64,000 nucleotides of DNA. Source: an uncultured bacterium. GTDB taxonomy: Bacteria > Verrucomicrobiota > Kiritimatiellia > RFP12 > UBA3636. The DNA lies in NCBI GenBank assembly GCA_902761575.1, contig CACWKU010000001.1:22435-86434 (forward strand), read 5' to 3'. Shown here one piece after another: positions 3,204-63,265 of this stretch. How positions within the stretch are numbered: position 1 is the first letter of the stretch; the number at the start of each line of letters is the position of its first letter. Made by a program: the position numbers and the translations under genes. Below the pieces are notes generated by a model. It saw nothing but the letters and a program-made list of their open reading frames with translations. It was not told the origin of the DNA and made no database searches.

Positions 3204-5243
3204 TCAAACGCGTGCGAGGTCCTTCTCGCGCAGGAGGCGCCAGGCGGCGTCGCGGACGTCCGTGACGTCGTCGCGCAGCCTGCCGCAGCGGCACGGGCGG
3301 AGGCGCACGAGGTGCGTCGCGTGGCCGGGGACGGAGGCCTCGTAGACGCCCATGAAGACGCCCTCGTCCTCCTGCCGCCACACGTCGCGCACGAGCCACT
3401 TGCAGAGCAGCCCGGCCTTCTTGAGGTCGAAGGGCACCATCCGCTCGAAGCCGGACTTGTTGTAGAGGCCGGCGGCGATGGAGCCGTCGGCGAGCGGGCG
3501 CGCCCAGACCTCCCAGCCGTCGCCCTCGGCGATGCAGCCCGCGGCCTTGCCGAGCTCGTCCTGGTCGATCTCGATCACCTCGTCGTTCGTGAGGAGCGAG
3601 CGCGTGAACGGGGAGAGCTTCGTAAGATCGCAACCGATCATGAGCGGCGCCGCGAGGAGCGCCCACATCGAGACGTGCGTGTACTGCTCGTTCGGCGCGA
3701 GGCGCGACTCCTTGCCGTCGTTCCAGCAGACCGCGCCGACGCAGAGCATGTCCGGGTCGTTCCACGCGCCGGGGCCGGCGTAGAGGAAGAGGCGCTTCTG
3801 CTTCTCGATGGCGGCGGAGACCGAGGACCAGGTGTCGAAGACGTCGCCCGTCGTGCGCCAGCTCTGCCCGCCGACGCATCGCCCCCACGCGCTCACGTTC
3901 TCCATGCCGTACTGGCAGAGCGAGAGGACGATGTCCCGCTTCTGGTGGCGCAGCGCGGCGCCCATCACGAGGTAGGGGTACATCGCGCGGAGCACGTCGG
4001 AGCCGAACGCGACGTCGTCGTAGAAGCACCAGTCGTGCTTGAGGTAGTCGAAGCCCCACTCGGCGAACGTCTTCGCGTCGAGCTCCTCGTGCTGCCAGCT
4101 CCCGGCGGCGCGGCCGCAGGTGAACGGACCGGGGCTCGAGTAGATGCCGGCCTTGAGGCCCTTCGCGTGGATGTGGTCCGCGAGCGCCTTCATGTCGGGG
4201 AAGCGCCGGTTCGCGGCGATGCGGCCGTCGGCGTCGCGCAGGGGCCCGTCGAGGTCGGGGTCCTCCTTCGCGCGCTCGGGGATGTTCTGCCAGAAGTCGT
4301 CGACGTTCACGTAGGCGTAGCCGTGGTCCGCGAGGCCCGTCGCGACGAGCGCGTCCGCGGCGGTGCGGACCTTCTCGTCCGAGACGCTTCCGGCGAACGC
4401 GTTCCAGCTGCTCCAGCCCATCGCGGGCGTGAGGCAGATCGTCTCGCCGACCCGGATCGTGAACGGCTTCTCGTCGCTGCCGAGGCGGTTCGTCGCGCGG
4501 ATCGCGAGCGCGTAGTCGCCGGGCTCGTCGATGCGGCCGGAGAGGATCCGCGTGGCGGGGTCGTAGGAGAGGCCCGCGAGCTTCGGACTGTCGAGCCCGA
4601 GGCCGATCACCTCGACGCGGAGCGGCGCGGCGCCGGTCGCGGGCACGCGGAAGAGGATGGGGCGGCCGGGCCGCACGCCGTAGACGCACGGGCCGTTCAC
4701 GCGCGGCTCGGGGCGCTCCGGCGGCGTGAGGATCCCGAGCTGGCGCGACGTGCGCCGGACGTCGTTCGGGAGCACCTTGCCGTCGGCGTAGAGCAGCTTC
4801 GCCCCGCCCCAGACGGCGCCGACGCCCTTCCCCGCCCCGCCGTCCGCCGGCTCGGCGACGAGCGTGAACGTCTGGGCGCCGCTCACGTCCGCGCGCGCCT
4901 TGAGGTCGGCCGTGTCGCCCGCCGCCACGACTCCCGACCAGACTTCGCGGCCGTCGGCGAGGACCTTCAGGGCGACCGTGCCCGGCGCGCCGGCGGCGTC
5001 GATGCCGCAGGACGCCTCGAACGCGGCCGCGTCGCCGCCGACCGGGATCTCCACGGCGAACGGCACGGGCGTGCGCAGCCCGAAGAAGTGCTTCTTCGCG
5101 GGGGTCGAGAAGCGCTTCTCGATCGCCGCGCAGGCGACCTCGCAGACGCCCTCGCCGCGCACGACCCTCGTGACGTCGAACATCTCGGCGGGGACGTAGT
5201 GGACGGCGGCGGGCGCCGTTGTGTGTTTCGTGGAACGTTTCAT
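3204..5243 (-). CDS. alpha-galactosidase, GH27 (melibiase) with N-terminal NPCBM-like and Ig-like domains
   Basis: Motifs LTPAMGWSSWNAF, YVNVDDFWQ, LKHDWC. The ATG (rc of 5241-5243) lies 5 nt after the stop of the upstream CDS. The track ORF 3204..6602 reads through into an overlapping gene in another frame. Confidence 0.75.
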   Translation of the reverse strand: MKRSTKHTTAPAAVHYVPAEMFDVTRVVRGEGVCEVACAAIEKRFSTPAKKHFFGLRTPVPFAVEIPVGGDAAAFEASCGIDAAGAPGTVALKVLADGREVWSGVVAAGDTADLKARADVSGAQTFTLVAEPADGGAGKGVGAVWGGAKLLYADGKVLPNDVRRTSRQLGILTPPERPEPRVNGPCVYGVRPGRPILFRVPATGAAPLRVEVIGLGLDSPKLAGLSYDPATRILSGRIDEPGDYALAIRATNRLGSDEKPFTIRVGETICLTPAMGWSSWNAFAGSVSDEKVRTAADALVATGLADHGYAYVNVDDFWQNIPERAKEDPDLDGPLRDADGRIAANRRFPDMKALADHIHAKGLKAGIYSSPGPFTCGRAAGSWQHEELDAKTFAEWGFDYLKHDWCFYDDVAFGSDVLRAMYPYLVMGAALRHQKRDIVLSLCQYGMENVSAWGRCVGGQSWRTTGDVFDTWSSVSAAIEKQKRLFLYAGPGAWNDPDMLCVGAVCWNDGKESRLAPNEQYTHVSMWALLAAPLMIGCDLTKLSPFTRSLLTNDEVIEIDQDELGKAAGCIAEGDGWEVWARPLADGSIAAGLYNKSGFERMVPFDLKKAGLLCKWLVRDVWRQEDEGVFMGVYEASVPGHATHLVRLRPCRCGRLRDDVTDVRDAAWRLLREKDLARV

Positions 5244-14443: not shown

Positions 14444-14523
14444 GATTTTACCCAAGCTCCGGCCGCAAGGCAAACGCGAGCGGCGGCGGCGCTGTTGCCG
14501 TGCGCGGGGCGGTCTGCTAGCAT
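14444..14523 (+). promoter_or_regulatory. plus-strand variant: GATTTTACCCAAG element with a TAGCAT hexamer 9 nt before the ATG of the tandem esterase gene (spacing 71, not 51)
   Basis: Element at 14444-14456. TAGCAT at 14518-14523. ATG at 14533. Confidence 0.3.
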
Positions 14524-14532
14524 CCCCCCGCC

Positions 14533-16236
14533 ATGAGCACGATGAAACCCTTCGATCCCGCCGTCGCGGAGCGCCAGCCGGTCTGGCCCGCCGGAGAGAT
14601 GCCCGACCGCCAGCCCCACCAGATCGCCGCGATGACCGACGAGGCGGAAGCCCCCGGCTTCGACCCCGCCGCGCACACGGAGCCCTTCCTCGACTGGTAT
14701 CCGCCGCCCGCGAACCCCATCGGAGCCTGCGCGATCCTCGTCTCCGGCGGCGCCTACCAGAACTGCTGCGACGTGGGCCTGATCAAGGAGTGGCGCGAGC
14801 GCTTCGAGGCGCTCGGCTGCCAGTGCGTGAACTTCGTCTACCGCACGCCGTGGGCGCGCGGGATGGCGATCTACAAGACCGCGTGGGAGGACGCCCGCCG
14901 CGCCGTCCGCCTCGTGCGCTCGCAGGCCGCCGCGCGCGGCTTCGACCCGGAGCGCATCGTCACGGTCTCGATGTCCGCCGGCTCGCACCTCTCGCTGCTC
15001 CTCGCGACGGCGTCGCAGACGAAGGTCTACGAGCCCGTCGACGCGCTCGACGAGATTCCCTGCCACGTGAACGCCGCCGTCGCCTTCGCGCCGGCCGGGA
15101 TGCTCTCCGACGGCCCGATGTGCCCGAACGAGCGCGACGGCGACGGCCTCGACATCGAGCTCGACCCCGCCTTCGCGTTCGACGCGAAGACGCCGCCGGT
15201 CTTCCTCTCGCACGGCGGCGCCGACGCGTACTCGACGTTCAACTCGACGCGCATCTACCGCCGCCTGCGCGCGGCGGGCGTCCCGGCCGAGCTGCACATC
15301 CATCCCGACAAGCCGCACGGCATGTTCGGCCTCGAGCGCGGCGTCGAGTTCCTGCGCCAGATCGGCTTCCTCGGCCCGCTCGGGCCCGAGGTGCCGATCC
15401 TCGAGCGGTTCGCGTCCGACGACGCGCGCGACGGCGCCGCGGAGGCCGCGCCGATCTGGCCGGAGGGGCGCATGCCCCACCCGCAGGCGGACCAGTGCGA
15501 GCCGATCCTCGAGTGGCACCTCCCGAAGAAGCGCACGACCGACGCCATCCAGATCGTCTGGAGCGGCGGCGCCTACCTCGGCAACGACCCGGACGGCTTC
15601 GAGGTCGCGCCCGCGCGGCGCTACCTGAACGGGAAGGGCATGGCCGTCGTCACGGTCCGCTACCGCACGCCGCGCCCCTCCCCTCCCCTCGCCAAGCACG
15701 TCGCGGCGTGGCAGGACGTCCAGCGCGCGGTCCGGCTCGTCCGCGCCGGCGCCGCGGCGCGCGGCCTCGACCCGGACCGCATCGGCGTGATGGGCAGCTC
15801 CGCCGGCGGGCACCTGGCGCTGCTGGCCGCGACCGGCTCGCGCCACCGCACCTACCTTCCGGTCGACGAGACCGACGCCCTACCCTGCACCGTGCAGTGG
15901 TGCGTTGCGATCTACCCGGCCTACACGATCGAGGGCACCTACGACAACGGGACACCCGACGGCTCCAACGACCCGGCGCTGCGCCTCGCCCCGGAGCTGC
16001 CGTTCGACCCCGACACGCCGCCGATCCTCTTCGTGCACGGCGACGCGGACGAACACCCCGCCACGGCATCCGTCGCGACGTGGGAGCAGCTGCGCCGCAT
16101 GGGCGTCCAGGGCGCGGTGCACACGCTCGCCAGGCGCGGCCACTGCTTCTACTTCGCCGCCGCCCCCGGCACCGGCTCCTACACCTTCCTCGACCGGGTC
16201 TGGGAGTTCCTGACGGACAAAGGCTTCAACAAGTAG
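14533..16236 (+). CDS. tandem-duplicated alpha/beta-hydrolase (esterase/lipase) protein, two GxSxG domains, no signal peptide
   Basis: Track ORF. Nucleophile elbows SMSAGSH and GSSAGGH. Each half ends with an HGxADxxV/HP motif. Confidence 0.65.
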   Translation: MSTMKPFDPAVAERQPVWPAGEMPDRQPHQIAAMTDEAEAPGFDPAAHTEPFLDWYPPPANPIGACAILVSGGAYQNCCDVGLIKEWRERFEALGCQCVNFVYRTPWARGMAIYKTAWEDARRAVRLVRSQAAARGFDPERIVTVSMSAGSHLSLLLATASQTKVYEPVDALDEIPCHVNAAVAFAPAGMLSDGPMCPNERDGDGLDIELDPAFAFDAKTPPVFLSHGGADAYSTFNSTRIYRRLRAAGVPAELHIHPDKPHGMFGLERGVEFLRQIGFLGPLGPEVPILERFASDDARDGAAEAAPIWPEGRMPHPQADQCEPILEWHLPKKRTTDAIQIVWSGGAYLGNDPDGFEVAPARRYLNGKGMAVVTVRYRTPRPSPPLAKHVAAWQDVQRAVRLVRAGAAARGLDPDRIGVMGSSAGGHLALLAATGSRHRTYLPVDETDALPCTVQWCVAIYPAYTIEGTYDNGTPDGSNDPALRLAPELPFDPDTPPILFVHGDADEHPATASVATWEQLRRMGVQGAVHTLARRGHCFYFAAAPGTGSYTFLDRVWEFLTDKGFNK

Positions 16237-21947: not shown

Positions 21948-23765
21948 TCAGGTTCTTTCGACGGTAATCCGCGCGGAGAACGCGAGGCCGGCGCGGAGGG
22001 GCGCCGTCAGGTAGGCGTAGAGGAATCCCGCGATCGGGGAAAAGGCGCGGTCGCCGCGGTCGGTCTTCGCAAGTTCGAACGGCAGGTCGGATTCGACCGT
22101 GACGACCGCGTCGCCCCGCCGGATTCGGACGCGCCCGTCCGCGAGTTCGACGCGGTCGGCGGCCGTCGCGACGAGCGGAAGCACGAAGCGCGCGTCCGCC
22201 TCGCACATGCCGACGATCGAGAACGCGTTCCCGTCCACGCGCGAAACCAGTTCGTAGGCCGCGCCGCGCGTCCCGTCGCGCCCCGTCAGACGGCCGCGCG
22301 CGCGGCATTCGACGGCGCCCGCGGCGGATGTTGACTCCATCTCGGCGTCCGCGTCCCGCGCGGAGCTCGAAGAATCGTTCGCCTCGATGCGCGGCATCAT
22401 CGAAAGCACCGTCCGCTCGTGGCGGAGGTCCTGCAGGTTGCGGGCCTCGACGATCGCGTAGTCCGCCATCGTGCCGACGACGAGCGGCCCGACCGCTTCG
22501 TGCCAGACCATCGACGGACCGCCGCCGGAAACCCGGAGCCCGGTCATGCCCTGCGCGAAGGAGTCTCCGCCCGCGAACGTGACGCGCCAGGGACCGACGG
22601 CGGCGAGCGCCACGCCGATCGAGGGGAAGGACTTGAGTCCGTAGGCGCGTTCGCGCGGCAGGGGCGCATCGGCGCCCCGCTCGGGGATCGAATCGTCCAG
22701 GAGGACGTCGACGACGGACTTCGCGTGCGTGAACGAATGGTGGATGCATGCCGGCTCGCCGGCCGCCTCGTACTGCACGCCGCCCGCCAGAAGGCCGGAG
22801 GCGTTCGTGCAGCGCTCGTACAGGGCGAGGTGGAGCCCCATCGCCCTCGCGGCCCAGGGCACGCCCGACTTGGCGAGGGCGCCGAGGATCGGCAGGAGGC
22901 CGTCCGACGTGCGGCTGCCGTAGTACGTCCACTTCGCGCTCCGGCTCCCGAAGGAGTCGTCCACGCCGCCGTCGGGTAGGAGGAACTCGGCATGCACGGC
23001 CGCCGAGGCGAGGACGGCGTCCTTCATCCGCCCGTCGCCGCAGAGTTCGGCATACGCGAACAGAGACGGCAGCGACTCCTCCAGATTGTAGCCGAGGTCG
23101 ACGTACGCGTGCCCGCGCGGCGAGCGGTGCGACATCGGCGCGCCTTCGCCCGTGAAAAGTCCGTCCGGAAGGAACGACTTCATCACGCGGTCGGCCATCG
23201 ACCGGGCCAGAGCCGTCCTGCCGGCGTCGCCCAGTACGCGCCCGGCGAGCGCCATCGCCTCGCAGAAGGACGCCGGATAGTTCACGTTGGTGGACTCCAC
23301 GAACGACTCGTCGAACCGCTCGACGACGAAGTCCGTGTCCCGCTCGAAGAGCGCGCTCCAGCGCACGCGCAGGTCCCGCGGCAGCCGGTCGCCGAAACGG
23401 AGAAGCGTCTTGCCGAGGGCGATCTGCGCGAACACGGTGATGGCCCACCACTGGCTCTGGAAGTCGTTGTAGAGGCCGCCGTCCTCCCGGCGCATCGCGG
23501 CCTCCGTCCAGTCGACGGCCCGCTCCGCCGCCGCGAGGTACTTCTCGTCCCCCGTGCGCGTCCAGCGGTAGGCCAGCGGATAGGCGAGGTCGCCGACGCG
23601 CCCGTGGAGGACGCCGCACGCGGGGCACGCGATCGCGCCGTCGAGCATTGGGTCGCCCGTTCCCGCGATCTGCCGCGCGAGGAGGGCGTCGCACCACCGG
23701 GCGACGAGCCCCTCGGCGGCCTCCCGGCTCCAGGACGAAGACGTTGAAAGCGTGTTGGATTCCAT
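21948..23765 (-). CDS. hypothetical ~605-aa protein, possibly an alpha/alpha-toroid glycoside hydrolase or lyase-like enzyme (family not recognised)
   Basis: Start MESNTLSTSSSWSREAAEGLVARW at 23763-23765, 20 nt after the upstream stop. The long track ORF 21948..27086 is a read-through across the upstream gene. Confidence 0.4.
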   Translation of the reverse strand: MESNTLSTSSSWSREAAEGLVARWCDALLARQIAGTGDPMLDGAIACPACGVLHGRVGDLAYPLAYRWTRTGDEKYLAAAERAVDWTEAAMRREDGGLYNDFQSQWWAITVFAQIALGKTLLRFGDRLPRDLRVRWSALFERDTDFVVERFDESFVESTNVNYPASFCEAMALAGRVLGDAGRTALARSMADRVMKSFLPDGLFTGEGAPMSHRSPRGHAYVDLGYNLEESLPSLFAYAELCGDGRMKDAVLASAAVHAEFLLPDGGVDDSFGSRSAKWTYYGSRTSDGLLPILGALAKSGVPWAARAMGLHLALYERCTNASGLLAGGVQYEAAGEPACIHHSFTHAKSVVDVLLDDSIPERGADAPLPRERAYGLKSFPSIGVALAAVGPWRVTFAGGDSFAQGMTGLRVSGGGPSMVWHEAVGPLVVGTMADYAIVEARNLQDLRHERTVLSMMPRIEANDSSSSARDADAEMESTSAAGAVECRARGRLTGRDGTRGAAYELVSRVDGNAFSIVGMCEADARFVLPLVATAADRVELADGRVRIRRGDAVVTVESDLPFELAKTDRGDRAFSPIAGFLYAYLTAPLRAGLAFSARITVERT

Positions 23766-39500: not shown

Positions 39501-39927
39501 CGATCGACACGCGGGTTCCGATGGCGGAGTCGTTCACCTCCTGGAGGCCGCAGTGGATCCACTTCTCGCGGCTCTTGCGGCCCAGGCTCGCGAACGTCTG
39601 GTAGGCCTGCGCCTCGTGCCCGCCGAGCGCGAGCTGGAAGAGGTCGCGGAAGCCCTCCGCGTCCTGCGCGTCCTCCTGGCCGAAGAAGACCGTCGTGTTC
39701 TTCGCGTGGTCGAACTTCCCGCCGAAGATCTGGTTGAACGGGCCGTCGAACCGGACGTCCATCCGGAACGTCGTCCCGGGCTGCGGCACGAGGTCGGTCT
39801 TCACGCAGCTGCCGTGCGTGGACTTGACGTATTCGACGCGGTAGTCGAAGTCCGCGGCGGCGGCGGACACGGCGGCGGCGGCGAGGCAGGCCGCGACGGC
39901 GCGGGCGTTTCGTTCGATGGCGTTCAT
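36598..39927 (-). CDS. 1109-aa secreted putative glycoside hydrolase of unrecognised family with CBM4/9-like domain; paralog of 43645..46467
   Basis: Track ORF with a signal peptide. C-terminal ~400 aa shared with 43645..46467 (MPCGTNAVTVRA.GR.W, TIWTGE/ILWTGD, PVQMNN, CW(Y/F)F, YENRTL). Confidence 0.55.
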   Translation of the reverse strand: MNAIERNARAVAACLAAAAVSAAAADFDYRVEYVKSTHGSCVKTDLVPQPGTTFRMDVRFDGPFNQIFGGKFDHAKNTTVFFGQEDAQDAEGFRDLFQLALGGHEAQAYQTFASLGRKSREKWIHCGLQEVNDSAIGTRVSIVYDGRHVTWGSFDMKLEGERTAAGKVPVSFFGMTCDDGSVKSYACYDLALYGAEFYRDGKPLARFVPVVKGGVAGLYEEVTGKFYASATDVPLEAGPRYEKKEPANAAGAARAPGGPVSDFSVPIFEDDFSEPKVFAERWSFRGHAQKDIEVKDGAVRIPSGGTGDGIQWKGELPDEFAAEAEIAVYPAWSEIKDPKDGDYHWAVMTGDYGTFGVRSDGYGVTLYQPVADQPTRSAYPWIANFKEGEPVTVRFERRKIGETMMGYAFFLNGVLGNYYTAPTPRKTVGFDGVAHWAPLGIENFKCPFEVRRVTIYALKGEDSPNLISNSGFEFDGDGVPLHYCNRNSCEMSKVSIEDYKEKYLKCFMVDTAERHSGKQSLRLRIGPFVRSFDFFAWNTPTQKGRSAVLSFWAKASEPGVQFKAKLSDNARIVDLTTEWTRYEVTTTNLPAPGIFSPVWFDVPGLRDRTTEASIWLDDLQLEMVDPPAGGFDPAKTYATEYKPKSGDAENFALGKPTPHAKPERTAPLTPAENALCGYPLPPEGLLLGHYDFYMEERTADFRAWDGKGGFEQVSIDISGMPCGTNAVTVRALGREWKAEVRKLPFKKGATQINQWSRTLVHDGEKVFMSSPCLIGRENGPMDDGTSRPVDILADAGFKYLNLQNNLNVRDIEMNRKTLAYAAQKGMKFTIWTGEGQTLDDVGEIRRWEDNSVTDWSRRKMYGMLDSPNVINWLVLDEPEYRNADDCKAFMKRTKALFPYNPVQMNNCWLGISGRFAGLPTDILMVDYYLTVDGTTLDMVVSKVDVLRSIAPGKPCWYFMESENSLHPRIPTYKEQVAQCWGCVAAGATGLSWFVNMPTSRCCYDALVDINRELLDNVDFLCSDELCGGAIASETENYIRCLTRRHGSERRIYTANVNPHPNARVSFRLPDDVPQDTTVEVLYENRTLQAKGGVFSDAFDGFSRHVYRIK

Positions 39928-39966
39928 GGTCGTTTTCCCCTGGATGGTTCCGGTCGGACTTGCGGG

Positions 39967-48841: not shown

Positions 48842-48943
48842 GCAAGAAATTGTACCATCCGCTCCGTGCCCTCCCCGTGCCCCTCGCTCGCCCCGCGCCG
48901 GGTCGGCGGTGGTCGTAGCTCGCATCGCTCGGTCCCGAAAACC

Positions 48944-49025
48944 AACAAACTCCCGAGTGTTTATTCAACAAACTCCCGAACGATTCTTCAACAAACTCCC
49001 GGACGAAATTTCAACAAACTCCCGA
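48944..49025 (+). repeat. four direct repeats of CAACAAACTCCCGA (period 22-23 bp) immediately upstream of the ATPase promoter
   Basis: Copies at 48944, 48967, 48989 and 49012. The third copy ends in G. Confidence 0.85.
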
Positions 49026-49030
49026 ACAAC

Positions 49031-49059
49031 TTGACATTTCCTTAGATTTCTCATAGAAT
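49031..49059 (+). promoter_or_regulatory. near-consensus sigma70 promoter TTGACA-N17-TAGAAT for the COG1373 ATPase gene; no Shine-Dalgarno site
   Basis: TTGACA at 49031-49036, 17-nt spacer, TAGAAT at 49054-49059, ATG at 49068. Confidence 0.6.
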
Positions 49060-49067
49060 TCGCCACC

Positions 49068-50348
49068 ATGAAACGGTACGCGAAGAGAGTGGCGGATAGT
49101 TTGCTCGCCCGAAAGCTCCAAGGGCTAGGCGCCGTTCTCGTCCAAGGGGCCAAATGGTGCGGCAAGACAACGACCTGCGAACAGGTCGCCAAGAGCGTTC
49201 TGTACATGGGCGACCCGAAGAAGCGCAAGGAGAATCTGGAGATGGCGTCGATCGACGTCACATCGCTTCTGGAGGGTGCGAAGCCAAGGCTCATCGACGA
49301 ATGGCAGGTCGCACCCGTGTTTTGGGACGCGATCCGCCACGCGGTGGACCACGCCGACGGTCCGGGGCAGTTCATCCTGACCGGCAGCGTGGTTCCCCCG
49401 AAGACCGAGGAGAAGACCCATAGCGGGACGGGGCGGATCGCCCGTCTCACCATGCGCCCGATGACGCTCTGGGAAAGCGGTGAGTCGAGCGGAACGATCT
49501 CCCTCGCCGAACTGTTTTCGGGAACGGCCCCGGATAGCGCCCGCGCCATGGGGCGCGAACTGGAGGAGATCGCGTTCCTCGCCTGCCGGGGCGGATGGCC
49601 CCAGGCGGTCCTTCGGAAGGGCGACGTCGCCCTCGACCTCGCCTTCGACTACGTGGACTCGGTCGCGGACGAGGACATCTCGCGCGTGGACGATGTGAGG
49701 CGCGACCCCGCGCGCGCCCGACGCCTTCTGCGCTCCTACGCGCGGCTCCAGGGCTCTCAGGCGAACCTCAAGGCCATCAAGCTTGACATGGCGGGCGGCG
49801 GGATCGACGCCCCGGACGAGGACACCGTCGCCTCCTACCGCGGCGCCCTCGAAAAGCTCTTCGTCGTGGAAGACGTGCCGGCCTGGTGTCCGAACCTTCG
49901 GTGCCGGACCCCTATCCGCACGAGCGGCACGCGCTGCTTCGTCGACCCGTCCATCGCTGCGGCGTCCCTCGGTCTCGGCCCGGGCGGCCTGATGTCCGAC
50001 CTGACGACGTTCGGCTTTTTCTTCGAAACGCTGGCCGTCCGCGACCTTCGCGTCTACGCAGAAGCCCTGTCCGGGAGCGTCGCCCACTACCGTGACGCCT
50101 CCGGGCTCGAATGCGACGCCGTCATCCATCTCCGCAATGGCGCCTACGGTCTCGTCGAGGTCAAGCTCGGCGGCGACCGACTCGTTGCCGAAGGCGTGGA
50201 AACCCTCCTGGCCTTCTCAGGCAAGATCGACACCGACGCAATGAAGGCGCCGGCGTTCCGTATGGTCCTTACGGCCGTCGGCGACTATGCCTACCGTCGT
50301 CCGGCCGATGGCGTCTACGTCTGTCCCCTCTCCGCTCTCTGTCCCTGA
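49068..50348 (+). CDS. AAA+ ATPase of the COG1373 family (DUF4143 C-terminal domain)
   Basis: Track ORF. Walker A GAKWCGKTT. C-terminal ..YRDASGLECDAVI..GLVEVKLG block. GC is lower than the surrounding DNA. Confidence 0.75.
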   Translation: MKRYAKRVADSLLARKLQGLGAVLVQGAKWCGKTTTCEQVAKSVLYMGDPKKRKENLEMASIDVTSLLEGAKPRLIDEWQVAPVFWDAIRHAVDHADGPGQFILTGSVVPPKTEEKTHSGTGRIARLTMRPMTLWESGESSGTISLAELFSGTAPDSARAMGRELEEIAFLACRGGWPQAVLRKGDVALDLAFDYVDSVADEDISRVDDVRRDPARARRLLRSYARLQGSQANLKAIKLDMAGGGIDAPDEDTVASYRGALEKLFVVEDVPAWCPNLRCRTPIRTSGTRCFVDPSIAAASLGLGPGGLMSDLTTFGFFFETLAVRDLRVYAEALSGSVAHYRDASGLECDAVIHLRNGAYGLVEVKLGGDRLVAEGVETLLAFSGKIDTDAMKAPAFRMVLTAVGDYAYRRPADGVYVCPLSALCP

Positions 50349-53231: not shown

Positions 53232-54626
53232 TCAGGCGAAGTGCGAGAGCGGCGCCTTGCCGATGGCGCGGACGTGGAACCCGAGCTCGAAGAGCTCGCG
53301 GCGGTCGAGGCAGTTGCGGCCGTCGAAGACGAAGGCCGGCTTGCGCATCCTCGCGAAGATCCGCGCCCAGTCGAGCTCCGGGAACTGGCGCCAGTCCGTG
53401 AGGACCGCGACGGCGTCCGCGCCCTCGACGGCCGTGTAGGGATCCTCCTCGAACGAGACGAGGTCGCCGTGGCGCGCGAGCTCCTTCCGCGCGTTCGGGA
53501 GCGCGTAGGGGTCGCACACGACGAGCTGCGCGCGCTCCTCGGCGAGCAGGTCCGCGACGACCTTCGCGGGCGTCTCGCGCGTGTCGGACGTGTCCGCCTT
53601 GAACGCGTAGCCGAGGATCGCGATGCGCTTGCCCGCGACGGTGTTGAACATCGCGTGGACCATCTCGGCGACGAAGCGCGTCTCCTGGTGCTCGTTCATC
53701 TCGACGACGGAGTTCCAGTAGGCCGCGGCCTCCGTCAGGCCCCGCTGCTCGCAGAGGTAGACGAGGTTGAGGATGTCCTTCTTGAAGCACGAGCCGCCGA
53801 AGCCCACGCCGGCGCGGAGGAACTTCGGCCCGATGCGCGAGTCGCGGCCGATGGCGCGCGCGACCTCGTCGACGTCGGCGCCCGTCTTCTCGCACAGCTC
53901 CGTGAGCGCGTTCACGCTCGAGATGCGCTGGGCGAGGAAGGCGTTGGCGGCGAGCTTCGAGAGCTCGGAGGACCAGACGTTGGTGGTGAGGATGCGGTCG
54001 CGCGGCACCCACTCGGCGTAGATGTCGACGACCGCCTCGCGCGCGGCGGCGCCGGTCGGGGTCTCGTCGGAGCCGACGAGCACGCGGTCGGGCTTCTCGA
54101 GGTCGGCGATCGCGGTGCCCTCGGCGAGGAACTCGGGGTTGGAGAGCACCTCGAAGCGGTGCGCGCCGCCGGACTCGAGCACGCGCTTCATCGCCGTCGC
54201 GGTGCGGACGGGGAGCGTGCTCTTCTCGACCACGATCAGGTCGTGCGTCGCGCACTCGCGGATCTCGTGCGCGGTCTTCTCCCAGTACTGCAGGTCGGCC
54301 GCGCGCCCGGCGCCCTGGCCGAAGGTCTTGGTGGGCGTGTTGACCGCGACGAACACGACGTCCGCCTCCGCGATCGCGGCGGGGATGTCGGTCGAGAAGA
54401 AGAGGTTGCGCCCGAGCGTCTCCGCGACGACCTCCTTGAGGCCGGGCTCGTAGAACGGGAGCGCGTCGGACTGCCACGCGGCGATGCGCTTCGCGTCGAT
54501 GTCGACGACCGTGACCTTGCGGTCCGGGCACTTTTTGGCGATCATCGCCATCGTGGGGCCGCCGACGTAGCCGGCGCCGATGCACAGGATGTTCGTGAGC
54601 TTTTTCGGGGTCTTGACGGTCTTCAT
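53232..54626 (-). CDS. ugd: UDP-glucose 6-dehydrogenase, long eukaryote-type form
   Basis: Start MKTVKTPKKLTNILCIGAGYVGG. Motifs GGSCFKKD, NPEFLAEGTAI. Long identical stretches to animal UGDH as I recall it. Confidence 0.85.
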   Translation of the reverse strand: MKTVKTPKKLTNILCIGAGYVGGPTMAMIAKKCPDRKVTVVDIDAKRIAAWQSDALPFYEPGLKEVVAETLGRNLFFSTDIPAAIAEADVVFVAVNTPTKTFGQGAGRAADLQYWEKTAHEIRECATHDLIVVEKSTLPVRTATAMKRVLESGGAHRFEVLSNPEFLAEGTAIADLEKPDRVLVGSDETPTGAAAREAVVDIYAEWVPRDRILTTNVWSSELSKLAANAFLAQRISSVNALTELCEKTGADVDEVARAIGRDSRIGPKFLRAGVGFGGSCFKKDILNLVYLCEQRGLTEAAAYWNSVVEMNEHQETRFVAEMVHAMFNTVAGKRIAILGYAFKADTSDTRETPAKVVADLLAEERAQLVVCDPYALPNARKELARHGDLVSFEEDPYTAVEGADAVAVLTDWRQFPELDWARIFARMRKPAFVFDGRNCLDRRELFELGFHVRAIGKAPLSHFA

Positions 54627-54706
54627 GGTCTGGATGGTCTGGATGGTCGGGATGGTCGGGATGGTCAGAGGGTCAGAGGGTCGGGATGGTCCTGATGGTC
54701 GGGAGG
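54627..54706 (-). repeat. nine tandem 8/9-nt GACCATCCN units filling the whole ugd 5-prime leader up to the ATG
   Basis: Sense strand reads GACCTCCC GACCATCAG GACCATCCC GACCCTCT GACCCTCT GACCATCCC GACCATCCC GACCATCCA GACCATCCA GACC-ATG. Confidence 0.9.
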
Positions 54707-55648
54707 TCACCGCTCCACGCGCATCGGGTTCTCGAGGAAGTCCCTGTAGGCGAGCTTGAGGCCGTCCTCGAGGGAGGTCTTCGGCCTCCAGCCGAGGGCG
54801 ATGGAGCGGGAGAGGTCGAGCAGCTTGCGCGGCGTGCCGTTCGGGCGGGTGCGGTCCCAGCGGATCTCGCCCTCGTAGCCGACGGTGCGCGCGACGAGCT
54901 CGGAGAGCGCCTTGATCGTGATCTCGCGCCCGGAGCCGGCGTTGATCGGGTCGTCGCCGTGGTAGCGCTCCATCACGAGGAGGCAGAGGTCGGCCAGGTC
55001 GTCCACGTAGAGGAACTCGCGAAGCGGCGAGCCGTCGCCCCAGCAGGTCACGAAGGGCGCCTTCGCCTCCTTCGCCTCGTGGAAGCGGCGGATCAGCGCG
55101 GGCAGGACGTGGCTGTGCTCCGGGTGGTAGTTGTCGTTCGGGCCGTAGAGGTTCGTCGGCATCACGGAGACGTAGTCCGCGCCGTGCTGGCGGTTGAGGT
55201 AGGCGCAGTACTTGAGGCCCGCGATCTTCGCGAGCGCGTAGCCCTCGTTCGTCGGCTCGAGCGCGCTCGTGAGCAGGCAGGACTCCGGCATCGGCTGCGG
55301 CGCGAACTTCGGGTAGATGCACGACGAACCGAGGAAGAGGAGCTTCCGGCAGCCGTTCCTCCACGCGGCGTGGATCGCGTTCATCTCCAGCATCGCGTTG
55401 TCGTAGAGGAAGTCCGCCGGCGCGGCGGCGTTCGCCGCGATGCCGCCGACCTTCGACGCGGCGAGGAAGACGTAGTCCGGCCTCTCCTCCGCGAAGAAGG
55501 CGTCCGTGGCGCGCTGGTCGCGCAGGTCGAGCTCCGCGTGCGAGCGGACGACGATGTTCTCGAAGCCGCGGCGCTTCAGCGCGCGGATGATGGCGGAGCC
55601 GACCATCCCGCGATGGCCTGCGACGTAGATCTTGGCGTTTGGTTCCAT
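54707..55648 (-). CDS. fcl: GDP-L-fucose synthase (GDP-4-keto-6-deoxymannose 3,5-epimerase/4-reductase)
   Basis: Track ORF. N-terminus [15 protein letters not shown]. Motifs YxxxK and LYGPNDNY. Confidence 0.8.
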
Positions 55649-55687
55649 GGTCTGGATGGTCCGATGGTCCGGATGGTCCGATGGTCA
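55649..55687 (-). repeat. four tandem GACCATC(G/CN) units forming the fcl 5-prime leader
   Basis: Sense strand reads GACCATCG GACCATCCG GACCATCG GACCATCCA GACC-ATG. Confidence 0.9.
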
Positions 55688-55804
55688 GAAGTGGCGCGCG
55701 GCATCATGAATTCGACATGGCGCGTTGCGATGGGCGCGGAGTCTAGCAGAGGGGTCGGCGGGAACGGAAGGGACGGAGTTGACCGTTTCTAGCACGATTT
55801 TGAC

Positions 55805-55833
55805 TTGCTTTCCGGGCGGGCCGATGATAGCAT
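55805..55833 (+). promoter_or_regulatory. candidate araC promoter TTGCTT-N17-TAGCAT with a very short leader
   Basis: Hexamers at 55805-55810 and 55828-55833. ATG at 55840. Confidence 0.35.
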
Positions 55834-55839
55834 GGACCC

Positions 55840-56691
55840 ATGAAACGTGCGCAGAACGAGGAGTCCGCCCCCCGGCGGCGGCTCTGCACACCGGACGGTT
55901 TTGCACGGTCGTCTCTCCTCCACGTGCAGGAGATCGGCGAGCTTGCTCCGTCACGTCCGATGACGAGCCGGCGCGCGGGATTCCCGTCGCTTCTCTTCCT
56001 GCTCGCCGAGTGGGGCGAAGGCGTGGTCCGCGAGGGCGCCGAGGAGCGTCCGCTGCGCGCCGGGGAGTGCGCGCTGCTGGACTGCCGCCGCGGGTGCGGA
56101 CACGCGACGGGCGAGCCGCCGTGGCGGCTCAAGTGGATCCACTTCGACGGACCCGGCGCGGCGGCGTTCGGCGAGAGATGGCGTGAGCGCGCCGGCGGAC
56201 CGGTCCTGCGCGCGACGTCGCCGGAGCGCTACCGGCGCGCGTGGGAGGAGGTCTGGGCCGCGGTCTCGTCGGAGGACGACCCGATCCGCGACCTCCGCGC
56301 GAACGAGGGGCTCGCCTCGCTCTGCACGCTGCTGATGCAGGACGCTCTCGGGACGGAGCCCGACCGGCGCGCGGAGCGCCTCGCGGCGGTGCGCTCCTGG
56401 ATCGATGCGCACTGCGCGGAGGAGGTCGCGCTCGACCGTCTCGCGGCGGTGGCGCACCTCAACAAGTACACGCTCGTGCGCGAGTTCCGCGCGCGGTACG
56501 GCGTGCCGCCGATGCGCGCCCTGGCGCAGGCTCGCGTCTCGAGGGCCAAGCGCCTGCTCCGCTTCACGGACGACACCGTCGAGACGATCGGCGCGGCGGT
56601 CGGAGTCCCCGACCCGAACTACTTCGCGCGCCTCTTCCGCCGCGTCGAGGGCCTCTCGCCGCGCGCCTTCCGCGAACGCTGGCGGGAATGA
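55840..56691 (+). CDS. AraC-family transcriptional regulator (cupin sensor + HTH)
   Basis: Track ORF. C-terminal HTH ...YTLVREFRARYGVPPMRALAQARVSRAKRLL. Confidence 0.75.
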   Translation: MKRAQNEESAPRRRLCTPDGFARSSLLHVQEIGELAPSRPMTSRRAGFPSLLFLLAEWGEGVVREGAEERPLRAGECALLDCRRGCGHATGEPPWRLKWIHFDGPGAAAFGERWRERAGGPVLRATSPERYRRAWEEVWAAVSSEDDPIRDLRANEGLASLCTLLMQDALGTEPDRRAERLAAVRSWIDAHCAEEVALDRLAAVAHLNKYTLVREFRARYGVPPMRALAQARVSRAKRLLRFTDDTVETIGAAVGVPDPNYFARLFRRVEGLSPRAFRERWRE

Positions 56692-61528: not shown

Positions 61529-61557
61529 TTGCGTTTGCATGCCCTTTTCGCTAGTAT
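61529..61557 (+). promoter_or_regulatory. candidate rdgB promoter TTGCGT-N17-TAGTAT
   Basis: Hexamers at 61529-61534 and 61552-61557. ATG at 61588. Confidence 0.4.
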
Positions 61558-61587
61558 TCCGGCCCCGCACGCCACCCCCGCCCCTCC

Positions 61588-62205
61588 ATGCGCCTCGTCC
61601 TCGCCTCCCGCAACTCCAACAAGCTCGTCGAGCTCCGCGCCCTCTGCGGCCTGCCGGCGGACTTCCTCGTCTCCGCCGCCGAATGCCCCGGCGCGCCCGA
61701 CCCCGAGGAGGATGCCGACACGTTCGTCGGCAACGCGCTCATCAAGGCGCGCGCGCTGCGCGACTTCTCGGGCGAGTGGGCGCTCGCCGACGACTCCGGG
61801 CTCGAGGTCGACGCCCTCGGCGGCGCGCCCGGCGTCCATTCCGCGCGCTACGCCGGCGTCCACGGCGAGGACGGCGCGAACAACGCGCTCCTCCTGCGCA
61901 ACCTCGACGCGCTCGGCCCGAAGGCCCCGCGCACATGCCACTTCTCCTGCGCGCTCGCCCTCGTCGCGCCCGACGGCCGCGAGTTCGTCGCGCTCGGCCA
62001 GTGCCCCGGCACGCTCCTGCGCGAGGGCCGCGGCACCAACGGCTTCGGCTACGACCCCCTCTTCCTCCCCGACGGCCGGGACAAGACCTTCGCCGAGCTT
62101 CCGCGCGAGGTGAAGTGCACCTTCTCCCACCGCGCCCGCGCCGCCGAACGCATGCGCCCCCTCCTCCGCTCCCTCTTCCCGACCCTCCCCCCTCCCCAAC
62201 CATAG
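61588..62205 (+). CDS. rdgB: non-canonical purine NTP pyrophosphatase (Ham1/RdgB family)
   Basis: Track ORF. N-terminus MRLVLASRNSNKLVEL. Motif GFGYDPLF. Confidence 0.7.
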   Translation: MRLVLASRNSNKLVELRALCGLPADFLVSAAECPGAPDPEEDADTFVGNALIKARALRDFSGEWALADDSGLEVDALGGAPGVHSARYAGVHGEDGANNALLLRNLDALGPKAPRTCHFSCALALVAPDGREFVALGQCPGTLLREGRGTNGFGYDPLFLPDGRDKTFAELPREVKCTFSHRARAAERMRPLLRSLFPTLPPPQP

Positions 62206-62242
62206 ACCATCGGACCATCCCGACCATCGGACCATCCCGACC
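62205..62242 (+). repeat. four tandem GACCATC(G/CN) units forming the galE 5-prime leader (the entire rdgB-galE spacer)
   Basis: Reads GACCATCG GACCATCCC GACCATCG GACCATCCC GACC-ATG. Near-identical to the fcl leader. Confidence 0.9.
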
Positions 62243-63265
62243 ATGCACATCCTCGTCACCGGCGGCGCCGGCTACATCGGCAGCCACACCTGCGTCGCGG
62301 CCTATGCCGCGGGCCATACGATCACGATCCTCGACAACCTGTCGAACAGCTCGCCCGAGTCCCTGAACCGCGTCGAGAAGATCAGCGGGAGGCGCCCGCG
62401 CCTCGTCGTGGGCGACATCGGCGACCGCTCCGTCGTCCGCTCCGTCCTCGACTCGGAGAAGTTCGACGCCGTCATCCACTTCGCCGGCTACAAGGCCGTC
62501 GGCGAGTCCGTCGCGAAGCCCTGGGAGTACTACCAGAACAACGTCGCGGGGACGCTCGTCCTCCTGGACGAGCTCCGGAGGCACGGGGTGCGCAACTTCA
62601 TCTTCTCCTCCTCGGCGACGGTCTACGGCAACCCCGACCCGAAGGACCTCCCGCTGAAGGAGACCGCGCCCCTTTCCGCCCTCAACCCCTACGGCGCGAC
62701 GAAGCTCTGGCTCGAGGAGATCATGCGCGCGATGGCCGCCGCCGATCCGGCGTGGCACTTCCTGCTGCTGCGCTACTTCAATCCCGTCGGCGCGCACGAG
62801 AGCGGCCTCATGGGCGAGGATCCCGCCGGCATCCCGAACAACCTGATGCCCTACATCACGCAGGTGGCGGTCGGCCGCCTGAAGGAGCTCACGATCTTCG
62901 GGAACGACTACCCGACGCCCGACGGCACCGGCGTCCGCGACTACATCCACGTGTGCGACCTGGCGGAGGGGCACGTCGCCGCGCTCGCAAAGGTCGCGGA
63001 CCTCCCCGGCTGCACCGCGATCAACCTCGGCTCCGGCTCGGGCGTATCCGTCGCGCAGCTCGTCGCCTCGTTCGAGAAGGCGATCGGCCGCCCGCTCCCG
63101 CACCGGTTCGGCCCGCGCCGCCCCGGCGACGCCGCGGCCTGCTACGCGGACGCCTCGAAGGCGCTGCAGCTCCTCGGCTGGAAGACGAAGCGCAACTCCG
63201 ACGACATGTGCCGCGACGCCTGGAACTGGCAGTCGAAGAACCCCAACGGCTACAAGAATGCGTAG
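62243..63265 (+). CDS. galE: UDP-glucose 4-epimerase
   Basis: Track ORF. Motifs MHILVTGGAGYIGSH and YGATK. Confidence 0.85.
   Translation: MHILVTGGAGYIGSHTCVAAYAAGHTITILDNLSNSSPESLNRVEKISGRRPRLVVGDIGDRSVVRSVLDSEKFDAVIHFAGYKAVGESVAKPWEYYQNNVAGTLVLLDELRRHGVRNFIFSSSATVYGNPDPKDLPLKETAPLSALNPYGATKLWLEEIMRAMAAADPAWHFLLLRYFNPVGAHESGLMGEDPAGIPNNLMPYITQVAVGRLKELTIFGNDYPTPDGTGVRDYIHVCDLAEGHVAALAKVADLPGCTAINLGSGSGVSVAQLVASFEKAIGRPLPHRFGPRRPGDAAACYADASKALQLLGWKTKRNSDDMCRDAWNWQSKNPNGYKNA

Follow-up and report, generated by a model that had tools for sequence, protein, structure and literature searches.

A start-codon-phased tandem repeat is one of several interchangeable galE leaders in an uncultured rumen Kiritimatiellae bacterium

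The stretch of DNA analysed here (hereafter the window) comprises 64,000 nucleotides with a G+C content of 69%, corresponding to positions 22,435 to 86,434 of contig CACWKU010000001.1 from an uncultured bacterium of the class Kiritimatiellia (GenBank assembly GCA_902761575.1). Our subject is the junction between two of its genes: rdgB, which encodes a non-canonical purine nucleoside triphosphate pyrophosphatase, and galE, which encodes a UDP-glucose 4-epimerase whose N-terminus (MHILVTGGAGYIGSH) aligns with its homologues from residue 1. NCBIfam profiles also identify fcl, ugd, cdd and an AraC-type regulator nearby. The 37 nt between rdgB and galE (62206-62242) consist entirely of a short tandem repeat, as an earlier note made from the sequence alone had stated; sequence and coordinates both agree with it. 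From the G of the rdgB stop codon to the galE ATG (62243-62245), the tract reads GACCATCG GACCATCCC GACCATCG GACCATCCC GACCATG: the first base of the first unit is the G of the rdgB TAG, and bases 5-7 of the last unit are the galE start codon. Tandem Repeats Finder (TRF) describes the array as 2.4 copies of a 17-nt period with 100% matches (score 80).

The repeat is real and well past chance expectation. GACCATC occurs 34 times in the window, compared to 8.4 +/- 2.9 expected and a maximum of 15 in any shuffle. A scan of the 64 kb allowing one mismatch found only three arrays with at least four units, which hold 14 of the 34 copies and lie before galE, fcl and ugd; all three run out in register at the start codon of a genuine gene, and two of them occupy the complete stop-to-start spacer. 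Repeats are prone to collapse and misjoining in metagenome assemblies. The galE junction is, however, identical in three further independent metagenome assemblies (L208, L209 and L211), so the array is no artefact of assembly, and each of the other leader types described below recurs in several.

Close relatives of this junction were gathered by a GalE protein homologue search followed by retrieval of the contigs encoding the matches; a direct GalE scan of metagenome contigs had returned only ~60%-identical galE genes from other phyla. Contigs whose GalE is 99-100% identical to that of the window carry at least four different leader alleles within otherwise identical flanking DNA (alleles A-D, Table 1). 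Three of these are tandem-repeat leaders and the fourth is a plain C-rich tract. The variable cassette has sharp limits: on the right it ends at the base before the ATG, and on the left it begins within rdgB, after the codons for ...LFP. The galE leader of the window is thus one of at least four interchangeable, G-poor leaders among strains of this uncultured rumen Kiritimatiellae bacterium. Farther away the arrangement dissolves: galE orthologues at 83-88% identity have other neighbours and no array, different genes follow more distant rdgB orthologues, and the gene for a 93%-identical RdgB homologue (L108) ends in another 8-nt repeat at the contig end. One GalE homologue of 535 aa (P0122, 98% identical) was called with a ~195-aa Arg/Ala-rich C-terminal read-through extension, which probably reflects a frameshift or a misassembly close to the 3' end rather than any fusion to rdgB.

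Because the cassette begins inside rdgB, its exchange also changes the end of the RdgB protein. The earlier note had raised the question whether the proline-rich RdgB tail is lineage-specific; it is in fact allele-specific, reading PTLPPPQP*, PAVVS* or PTL*/PSL* according to the downstream cassette while the flanking DNA stays identical. A C-terminal alignment of 120 RdgB homologues gives no sign of a conserved tail: the proteins can be aligned up to ...LFP (about residue 198) and are hypervariable beyond it. In sister alleles a TGA ends rdgB directly after the heptamer GACCCTC; allele A lacks that TGA, and therefore its rdgB reads on into a C-rich preface for five more codons to the TAG.

The same note had likened the rdgB 3' end (...CCCGACCCTCCCCCCTCCCCAACCATAG) to variant units of the ugd array. 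This holds for GACCCTC, which equals two such units; the remainder does not look like decayed GACCATC units. Even the heptamer need not derive from the GACCATC array, since it is also present in L196 and L197, where the leader is (ATTCAGC)n without any GACCATC array (L189 has GTCCCTC). The preface resembles C-rich stretches that precede arrays elsewhere (L064, L016 and L102) as well as the C-rich allele D (L214), and these parallels suggest that PPPQP stems from a leader preface. The related proposal that the repeat tract has expanded into or out of coding sequence finds direct examples at other sites (the GH2 DHP tract, L023/L027 and the ugd MKTVKTPK codons, all described below), though the allele-specific part of the rdgB tail represents the C-rich preface and not clear repeat units. 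As this tail is encoded by a hypervariable cassette, the underlying idea of a repeat tract that borders or enters coding sequence is sound.

Table 1. Coordinates of features in the window and leader alleles found upstream of galE
Feature	Position	Strand	Remarks
rdgB coding sequence	61588..62205	+	205 aa, TAG at 62203-62205; NCBIfam TIGR00042/PRK14822 over residues 1-197
galE coding sequence	62243..63265	+	340 aa; NCBIfam TIGR01179, 432 bits
GACCATC(N1-2) array, entire intercistronic spacer	62205..62245	+	four complete units, then a fifth (GACCATG) that provides the galE start codon
GACCCTC heptamer	62181..62187	+	part of codons P-T-L; same as ugd-array variant units
Allele-specific C-rich preface CCCCCTCCCCAACCATA, 17 nt	62188..62204	+	codes for rdgB PPPQP and the first two stop bases; absent from alleles B, C and D
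TAGTAT, -10-like hexamer of the lineage's TAGnnT type	61552..61557	+	only TANNNT between 61480 and 62245
GACCATC array, 3' part of the fcl 5' untranslated region	55646..55686	-	five units, last = GACCATG
TAGACT, -10-like hexamer upstream of the fcl leader	55740..55745	-	conserved at 12/12 fcl loci
GACCATC/GACCCTC array in the fcl-ugd spacer (80 nt, filled)	54624..54700	-	nine units plus GACCATG giving the ugd ATG
First nine ugd codons, MKTVKTPKK	54600..54626	-	GACCATGAA GACCGTCAA GACCCCGAA; array-like 9-nt units running on in frame into the coding sequence
galE leader allele A (window, L208, L209, L211)			...CTCTTCCCGACCCTC CCCCCTCCCCAACCATAG + GACCATC array; 37 nt; rdgB tail PTLPPPQP*
galE leader allele B (L210, L212, L213, L215)			...CTCTTCCC CGCCGTCGTCTCCTGA + CCACCCTCTC(TCGTCAC)n TGAA; 63 nt; rdgB tail PAVVS*
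galE leader allele C (L189, L196, L197)			...GACCCTCTGA (GTCCCTCTGA in L189) + (ATTCAGC)x2, x5 or x4 + ACCCTCTCACCTCCAACCTCTCACCTCTCG; 56-76 nt; rdgB tail PTL* or PSL*
galE leader allele D (L214)			other upstream gene (HAD/ThrH-like); 31-nt C-rich leader without repeats

The two other arrays of the window show different degrees of turnover. The array in the fcl 5' untranslated region (UTR) has five units in 12 of 12 strain sequences and differs among them by point changes only. Conversely, strains with an identical Fcl protein have fcl-ugd spacers of 80, 139, 155, 157, 173 or 191 nt (in another scaffold, a gap of Ns joins two allele types), and these spacers are mosaics of (TGCTGAA)n, (AACCATTC)n, (AACTGTTC)n and GACCATC units, the last present directly before the ugd ATG in 1.5, 3, 4, 5, 6 or 9 copies. 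The Ugd family profiles begin at residue 12, past the array-like codons for MKTVKTPK. Within galE allele C, the copy number of ATTCAGC is 2, 4 or 5. Neighbouring genes change at the leaders as well: in L203 (2130-2210) the fcl stop codon and array lead into cmk instead of ugd, and in L214 (500-545) galE stands behind a HAD/ThrH-like gene instead of rdgB. These two cases indicate that arrays coincide with rearrangement breakpoints.

Within the window, the galE and fcl leaders are identical at 39 of 41 positions. Ectopic gene conversion from the fcl leader to galE was considered as a source of this likeness; flanking homology is absent on both sides, so homologous conversion in this direction is unsupported. 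A common 17-nt seed or convergent expansion may account for it. A further leader, before an ATG at 39927 (39928-39960, minus strand), reads GTCCGACCG GAACCATCCA GGGGAAAAC GACC|ATG; it may be what is left of a GACCATC array after decay, with the terminal GACCATG retained.

To describe the spread of the element, we scanned one genome per species with the pattern GACCATC-N1-2-GACCATC-N1-2-GACCATG and obtained 105 loci. The relevant matches cluster in a few rumen or gut metagenome-assembled genomes (MAGs) of 68-73% G+C (CAMNDA01, CAMVRE01, JAFPUX01, JAFTHC01, CADBEF01 and CAMOEO01) that are labelled Kiritimatiellae or 'uncultured Verrucomicrobia'; each has several loci with arrays running into the ATG of a long open reading frame (ORF). 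Over fcl-ugd, the locus L006 from CAMNDA01 matches the window at 98.5% identity, which places the source of the window among rumen Kiritimatiellae near that MAG. Matches in Vibrio, Nostoc, Morganella and others were set aside as unrelated His/Asp-rich coding repeats (GACCATCAC = DHH). In the related assemblies the arrays are sense-oriented relative to dozens of unrelated genes that they precede. These include genes for carbohydrate-active enzymes (CAZymes) of glycoside hydrolase (GH) families GH2, GH3, GH10, GH16 and GH130; AraA, an enolase-superfamily dehydratase, a FabG-like short-chain dehydrogenase/reductase, a GFO/IDH/MocA protein, a zinc-dependent alcohol dehydrogenase and a polysaccharide deacetylase; and PanB, NusB, DciA and a CN-hydrolase that is probably NadE.

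The unit itself has a firm core and loose joints. Positions 1-6 of GACCATC are at least 95% conserved over 219 units from 39 arrays, a figure that is partly circular given detection with one mismatch. Position 7 is C in 173 units and G in 34, with G mostly in the terminal unit and C upstream of it. The spacers of 1-2 nt take at least 15 forms, giving periods of 9 (105 cases), 8 (73) and 7 nt (2). The same core recurs in several MAGs, each with genome-specific spacer habits, and orthologous genes retain the array while unit number and spacers vary. Arrays start either directly behind the stop codon of the preceding gene or a short distance 3' of a -10-like hexamer (TAGACT, TAGAAT, TATACT or TATAAT), and thus appear to lie in transcribed leaders; the TAGACT of the fcl leader also directly precedes another array in L011. 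Some arrays enter coding sequence: in L008 (~3507-3592) and at the orthologous site in L105, an in-frame GACCATCCC array with a 9-nt period occupies a loop of a GH2 enzyme, as (DHP)8 and (DHP)3 respectively, and in L023 and L027 the array passes the ATG so that the N-terminal codons are built of array units. At one locus (L067, 2790-2935, minus strand), an antisense array of GATGGTC units follows the purM stop codon and abuts a 12-unit sense array leading into a dciA-like gene; the two are predicted to form a hairpin of -75 kcal/mol (z = -7.5) that ends just before the AUG.

GACCATC is part of a larger repertoire. TRF applied to 333 kb of related loci returned a vocabulary of 7-9-nt repeat families, of which GACCATC variants and AATGCTG/CATTCAG are the most widespread. 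The AATGCTG/CATTCAG heptamers occur in both orientations in intergenic spacers, often beside GACCATC arrays (L006 1679-1711, L011 80-112, L016 ~2170-2195, L065 2433-2473 and the L189/L196/L197 spacers). Further long arrays include (TCCCTGA)x18 in L063, (GACCGTGT)x17 in L067 and (GCGACAT)x7.7 in L190-192.

We next consider what these leaders offer to the translation machinery. At galE, fcl and ugd, none of the motifs GGAG, GAGG and AGGA is found within 20 nt of the ATG, and GGAG is missing from all four galE leader alleles. The Kiritimatiellae have a canonical anti-Shine-Dalgarno (anti-SD) sequence and an SD on ~63% of genes (PMC10783764), and other genes of this lineage do show one (GGAGG at rplJ of L107, AAGGAG at rplA). 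The array leaders therefore constitute a distinct SD-less class. Inspection of the unit against the canonical anti-SD tail (as opposed to the lineage's own 16S) revealed no complementarity. Composition sets the leaders apart as well: G makes up 6-16% of the galE leader alleles compared to 35% of the genome, and leaders in the window are C>G skewed overall (G 0.24 and C 0.41, compared to 0.35 and 0.34). The predicted probability of being unpaired around the start is 0.54-0.90 over the leaders (0.64-0.90 for alleles B-D and the window's ugd leader), compared to 0.42 +/- 0.10 for random spacers of genome composition.

The search for specific structures was negative. Leader folds are no more stable than those of shuffled sequences (z = -0.19 to +1.34), and the idea that the leader is unusually unstructured beyond its composition was ruled out by the shuffles, leaving only its G-poverty. 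An Rfam search gave no match in any array and only two sub-threshold matches, both inside the galE coding sequence. The units are direct repeats, and the window arrays form no significant hairpin of the palindromic type found in repetitive extragenic palindromes (REP) and bacterial interspersed mosaic elements (BIME). Pairing of the fcl array with a complementary GGGAUGGUCGG (GMVGS codons, 45 nt into fcl) was also tried; the predicted fold does not use it (z = -0.85).

The promoter evidence suggests how galE is transcribed. The earlier note had allowed for a galE promoter inside rdgB. No TANNNT hexamer occurs in rdgB or the spacer (61558-62245), and a consensus promoter scan of the region returned 0 sites. 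Given this lack of a -10-like hexamer, an internal promoter is disfavoured and galE is most likely co-transcribed with rdgB, the TAGTAT at 61552 being the likely promoter of an rdgB-galE(-cdd) transcript. The longest cdd ORF begins at an ATG that overlaps the galE stop codon (ATGCGTAG, 63258-63265, plus strand); cdd family profiles, however, set in only at about residue 38, and the true start is therefore probably farther downstream. The -10 element of the lineage is apparently TAGnnT, often after TGn (14518, 49054, 55828 and 61552 on the plus strand; 61500, 55745, 46503 and 43539 on the minus strand), and many other genes of the window have it 6-30 nt ahead of their start. In some cases it precedes the ATG by only 6-9 nt (49054 to 49068, 55828 to 55840 and 14518 to 14533), which implies leaderless genes; probably many mRNAs of this lineage are of this kind.

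The explanation that we favour, with roughly even confidence, is that the tract acts at the RNA level as a weakly structured leader between cistrons, one that needs no SD and changes through slippage and recombination. The 37 nt would form the complete galE leader within an rdgB-galE(-cdd) transcript and represent one allele of a cassette-like, hypervariable, SD-less leader built of 8/9-nt GACCATC(N1-2) units, the last of which supplies the AUG; the C-rich front end would be read as the last five rdgB codons. In a 69% G+C genome, such a G-poor, weakly structured stretch could let ribosomes load without SD pairing, or, alternatively, ribosomes terminating at the rdgB stop 37 nt upstream might re-initiate at galE. 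The number and type of units would set the spacing and thereby tune galE output. New variants would arise by replication slippage and by recombination in or beside arrays, which may also reshuffle which gene follows which.

Several observations weigh against this explanation. The galE GACCATC array is invariant in copy number in 4 of 4 assemblies. The accessibility of allele A itself is 0.55, which is not significant (12% of random spacers equal it), and its CGG spacers permit small hairpins; moreover, the gain in accessibility comes from composition alone, as shuffled spacers are equally accessible. A model based only on composition does not explain the exact 7-nt core (between variable spacers) or the ATG register. 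The scan pattern demanded a terminal GACCATG, so the fraction of fetched arrays that end on a start codon is biased, and secondary arrays also occur inside coding sequences, 50 nt upstream of acpP (L016) or in antisense (L067). Transcription through the spacer, an effect on translation and the mutational mechanism are steps that we infer from sequence.

The features that composition leaves unexplained, core conservation and AUG register, keep alive a model in which a dedicated trans-acting factor recognises the GACCAUC units as multiple binding sites. It could be an RNA-binding protein that oligomerises (TRAP- or CsrA/Hfq-Crc-like), a small RNA or a ribosomal contact other than SD pairing. Such a factor would bind along the leader and either mask or present the AUG of the last unit, and array-led genes would form a post-transcriptional regulon. 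A near-invariant core (with the partly circular detection noted above) between spacers of many forms at a period of 8/9 nt is what multi-site binding might produce; the motif overlaps the start codon, it recurs in several MAGs in sense orientation to the gene, and the antisense array of L067 could mask its sense partner by pairing. Yet a galE encoding an identical protein has three unrelated leaders in sister strains, so genes would have to enter and leave such a regulon very readily. Array-led genes are heterogeneous in function (CAZymes alongside NusB, PanB, DciA and NadE), there is no Rfam family and no complementarity to the canonical anti-SD tail, and comparable positions are taken by several further families of 7-9-nt repeats. 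The four galE leader alleles in particular demote sequence-specific recognition from the main explanation, and we consider such a factor unlikely.

Many of the same observations could be read as arrays without function: slippage-prone microsatellites that build up at any site free of constraint (spacers, protein loops and termini) and are tolerated before genes, acting chiefly as recombination hot spots, with G-poverty and sense orientation arising from mutational or transcription-strand bias. Extreme turnover at 98.5-100% flanking identity, the many 7-9-nt families, the variable copy number in the GH2 coding loop, the breakpoints in L203 and L214 and the failure of repeat order to add predicted accessibility beyond composition all fit. 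We nonetheless regard this as doubtful: the arrays of the window without exception, and the majority of those at related loci, end exactly at the start codon and in register with it; upstream units end in ATC and not ATG, as if upstream AUGs were selected against; the fcl leader is constant at five units in 12 assemblies; and the shared G-poverty and lack of SD in all four galE alleles suggest a constraint on the spacer. Action at the DNA level, with GACCAT (nAnnAT) serving as tandem weak -10-like elements for a leaderless galE transcript that begins at the A of the ATG, or the array as an iterated operator for a DNA-binding regulator, seems highly improbable. The lineage does use leaderless genes, the GACCAT of the last full unit is suitably spaced, 7 nt ahead of the ATG, and a TAGACC overlaps the rdgB stop; however, both hexamers mismatch the lineage's TAGnnT/TANNNT, TAGACC lacks the invariant final T, the consensus scan found no promoter, and there is no -35 partner at 16-18 nt spacing. 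Array length ranges between 1.5 and 12 units, recognisable promoters precede arrays that lie in 5' UTRs, as fits a transcribed element, and an operator would not be expected to keep ATG register.

A bolder extension, which we think quite unlikely, is that start-codon-phased GACCAUC arrays constitute a further signal for initiation, independent of the SD and recognised by a dedicated factor or a ribosomal contact, and at the same time portable cassettes that bring their own translation starts and shuffle operons while slippage tunes expression strain by strain. If this cassette reading were true, the shared ...GACC|AUG end would let recombination within arrays join any upstream gene to any array-led gene, for example fcl-ugd versus fcl-cmk, or rdgB-galE versus thrH-like-galE.

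Re-initiation and ribosome scanning between cistrons have been reviewed, and coupling efficiency usually falls with distance (PMC12548453); array spacers here span +37 to +191 nt. The nearest characterised analogue of the GACCATC leaders is the repeat of Haemophilus influenzae hmw1A/hmw2A, a transcribed 7-nt (ATCTTTC)n in the 5' UTR that is polymorphic in copy number, makes expression depend on repeat number at the RNA level and forms one arm of a long hairpin, with a G-rich partner, that is cleaved by RNase III (PMC12721329). Both systems place a short tandem repeat between promoter and start (fcl) or, in our case, also in an intercistronic leader (galE, ugd). The differences are considerable: no G-rich partner is predicted in the window (one exists in L067), units are 8/9 nt long and in register with the AUG, and they serve dozens of housekeeping and catabolic genes compared to few surface-protein genes; an effect on expression is known for hmw only. 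The MIRU-VNTRs (variable number tandem repeats formed by interspersed repetitive units of mycobacteria) are, as summarised in PMC3184786 (citing Supply et al. 1997), intercistronic tandem repeats in polycistrons with ends overlapping the adjacent ORFs, strain-variable number and G+C-rich units, each ~40-100 bp long, that contain inverted repeats and carry small ORFs. Going by that summary, the arrays described here resemble MIRUs in lying between operon genes, in the direction of transcription, and in overlapping the flanking stop and start codons (galE, fcl-ugd and many related loci); they differ in having 8-9-nt, G-poor, non-palindromic units with weak predicted structure and a 17-nt mixed period that is not a multiple of 3.

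Other parallels concern the repeats or the leaders separately. The short tandemly repeated repetitive (STRR) sequences of cyanobacteria are lineage-restricted families of 7-nt tandem repeats that occur across many intergenic regions and whose function is unsettled; they parallel the 7-9-nt vocabulary seen here, in another phylum and with other unit sequences, and to our knowledge no systematic ending on start codons has been reported for them. The omega leader of tobacco mosaic virus (TMV), which contains direct 8-nt repeats, and CA-rich and pyrimidine-rich S1/standby leaders are G-poor, SD-independent translational leaders. Like them, the array is a nearly G-less leader that abuts the AUG and is proposed to act through lack of structure; those are single viral or synthetic leaders, whereas the arrays form a genomic family known from sequence. 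The TRAP sites of the Bacillus trp leader likewise combine many short conserved motifs with short variable spacers and overlap a translation start, although they are 3-nt (G/U)AG repeats at a 5-6 nt period (compared to a 7-nt core here), bound by a known 11-mer protein with a small defined regulon. The literature covered by our searches contained neither 15-mers of the array nor any paper that connects tandem-repeat leaders with Kiritimatiellae or Verrucomicrobia. Leaders with short tandem repeats are a known kind (as simple sequence repeats, SSRs, and VNTRs); what is distinctive here is the start-codon register, the use of whole spacers, the dozens of ordinary genes and the cassette-like replacement among strains. 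This lineage-wide way of building gene starts is apparently undescribed.

If arrays drive or tune initiation, they would provide a high-G+C bacterium with a simple, sequence-defined alternative to the Shine-Dalgarno sequence, and could account for the translation of internal cistrons where, as in this lineage, heavy use is otherwise made of leaderless mRNAs. Strain-to-strain turnover at the nucleotide-sugar genes galE, ugd and fcl would then be a cheap way to vary the supply of envelope and exopolysaccharide precursors in rumen populations. The practical consequences concern annotation and strain typing of these MAGs. Arrays mislead gene callers, with ugd called at 464 to 521 aa (509-521 aa via in-frame arrays in other assemblies) and rdgB tails that vary with the allele; metagenome assemblies break or become chimeric at them, as in the contig that ends in a repeat and the scaffold whose N-gap joins two alleles; and they mark recombination breakpoints.

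Two further repeats adjoin promoters. In L057 (5665-5714), a 9-nt tandem repeat CCGCTAGAA with a -10-like TAGAA(T/C) in each unit stands immediately upstream of a GACCATC array and is possibly an iterated promoter. In the window, a near-perfect promoter at 49030-49059 (TTGACA, 17 nt, TAGAAT) stands only 8 nt from the ATG at 49068, so the gene it serves would be leaderless. Directly upstream of it (48943-49027, plus strand) are four copies of CAACAAACTCCCGA(A/G) with a 23-nt period, which have the appearance of repeated binding sites for a regulator between divergent promoters.

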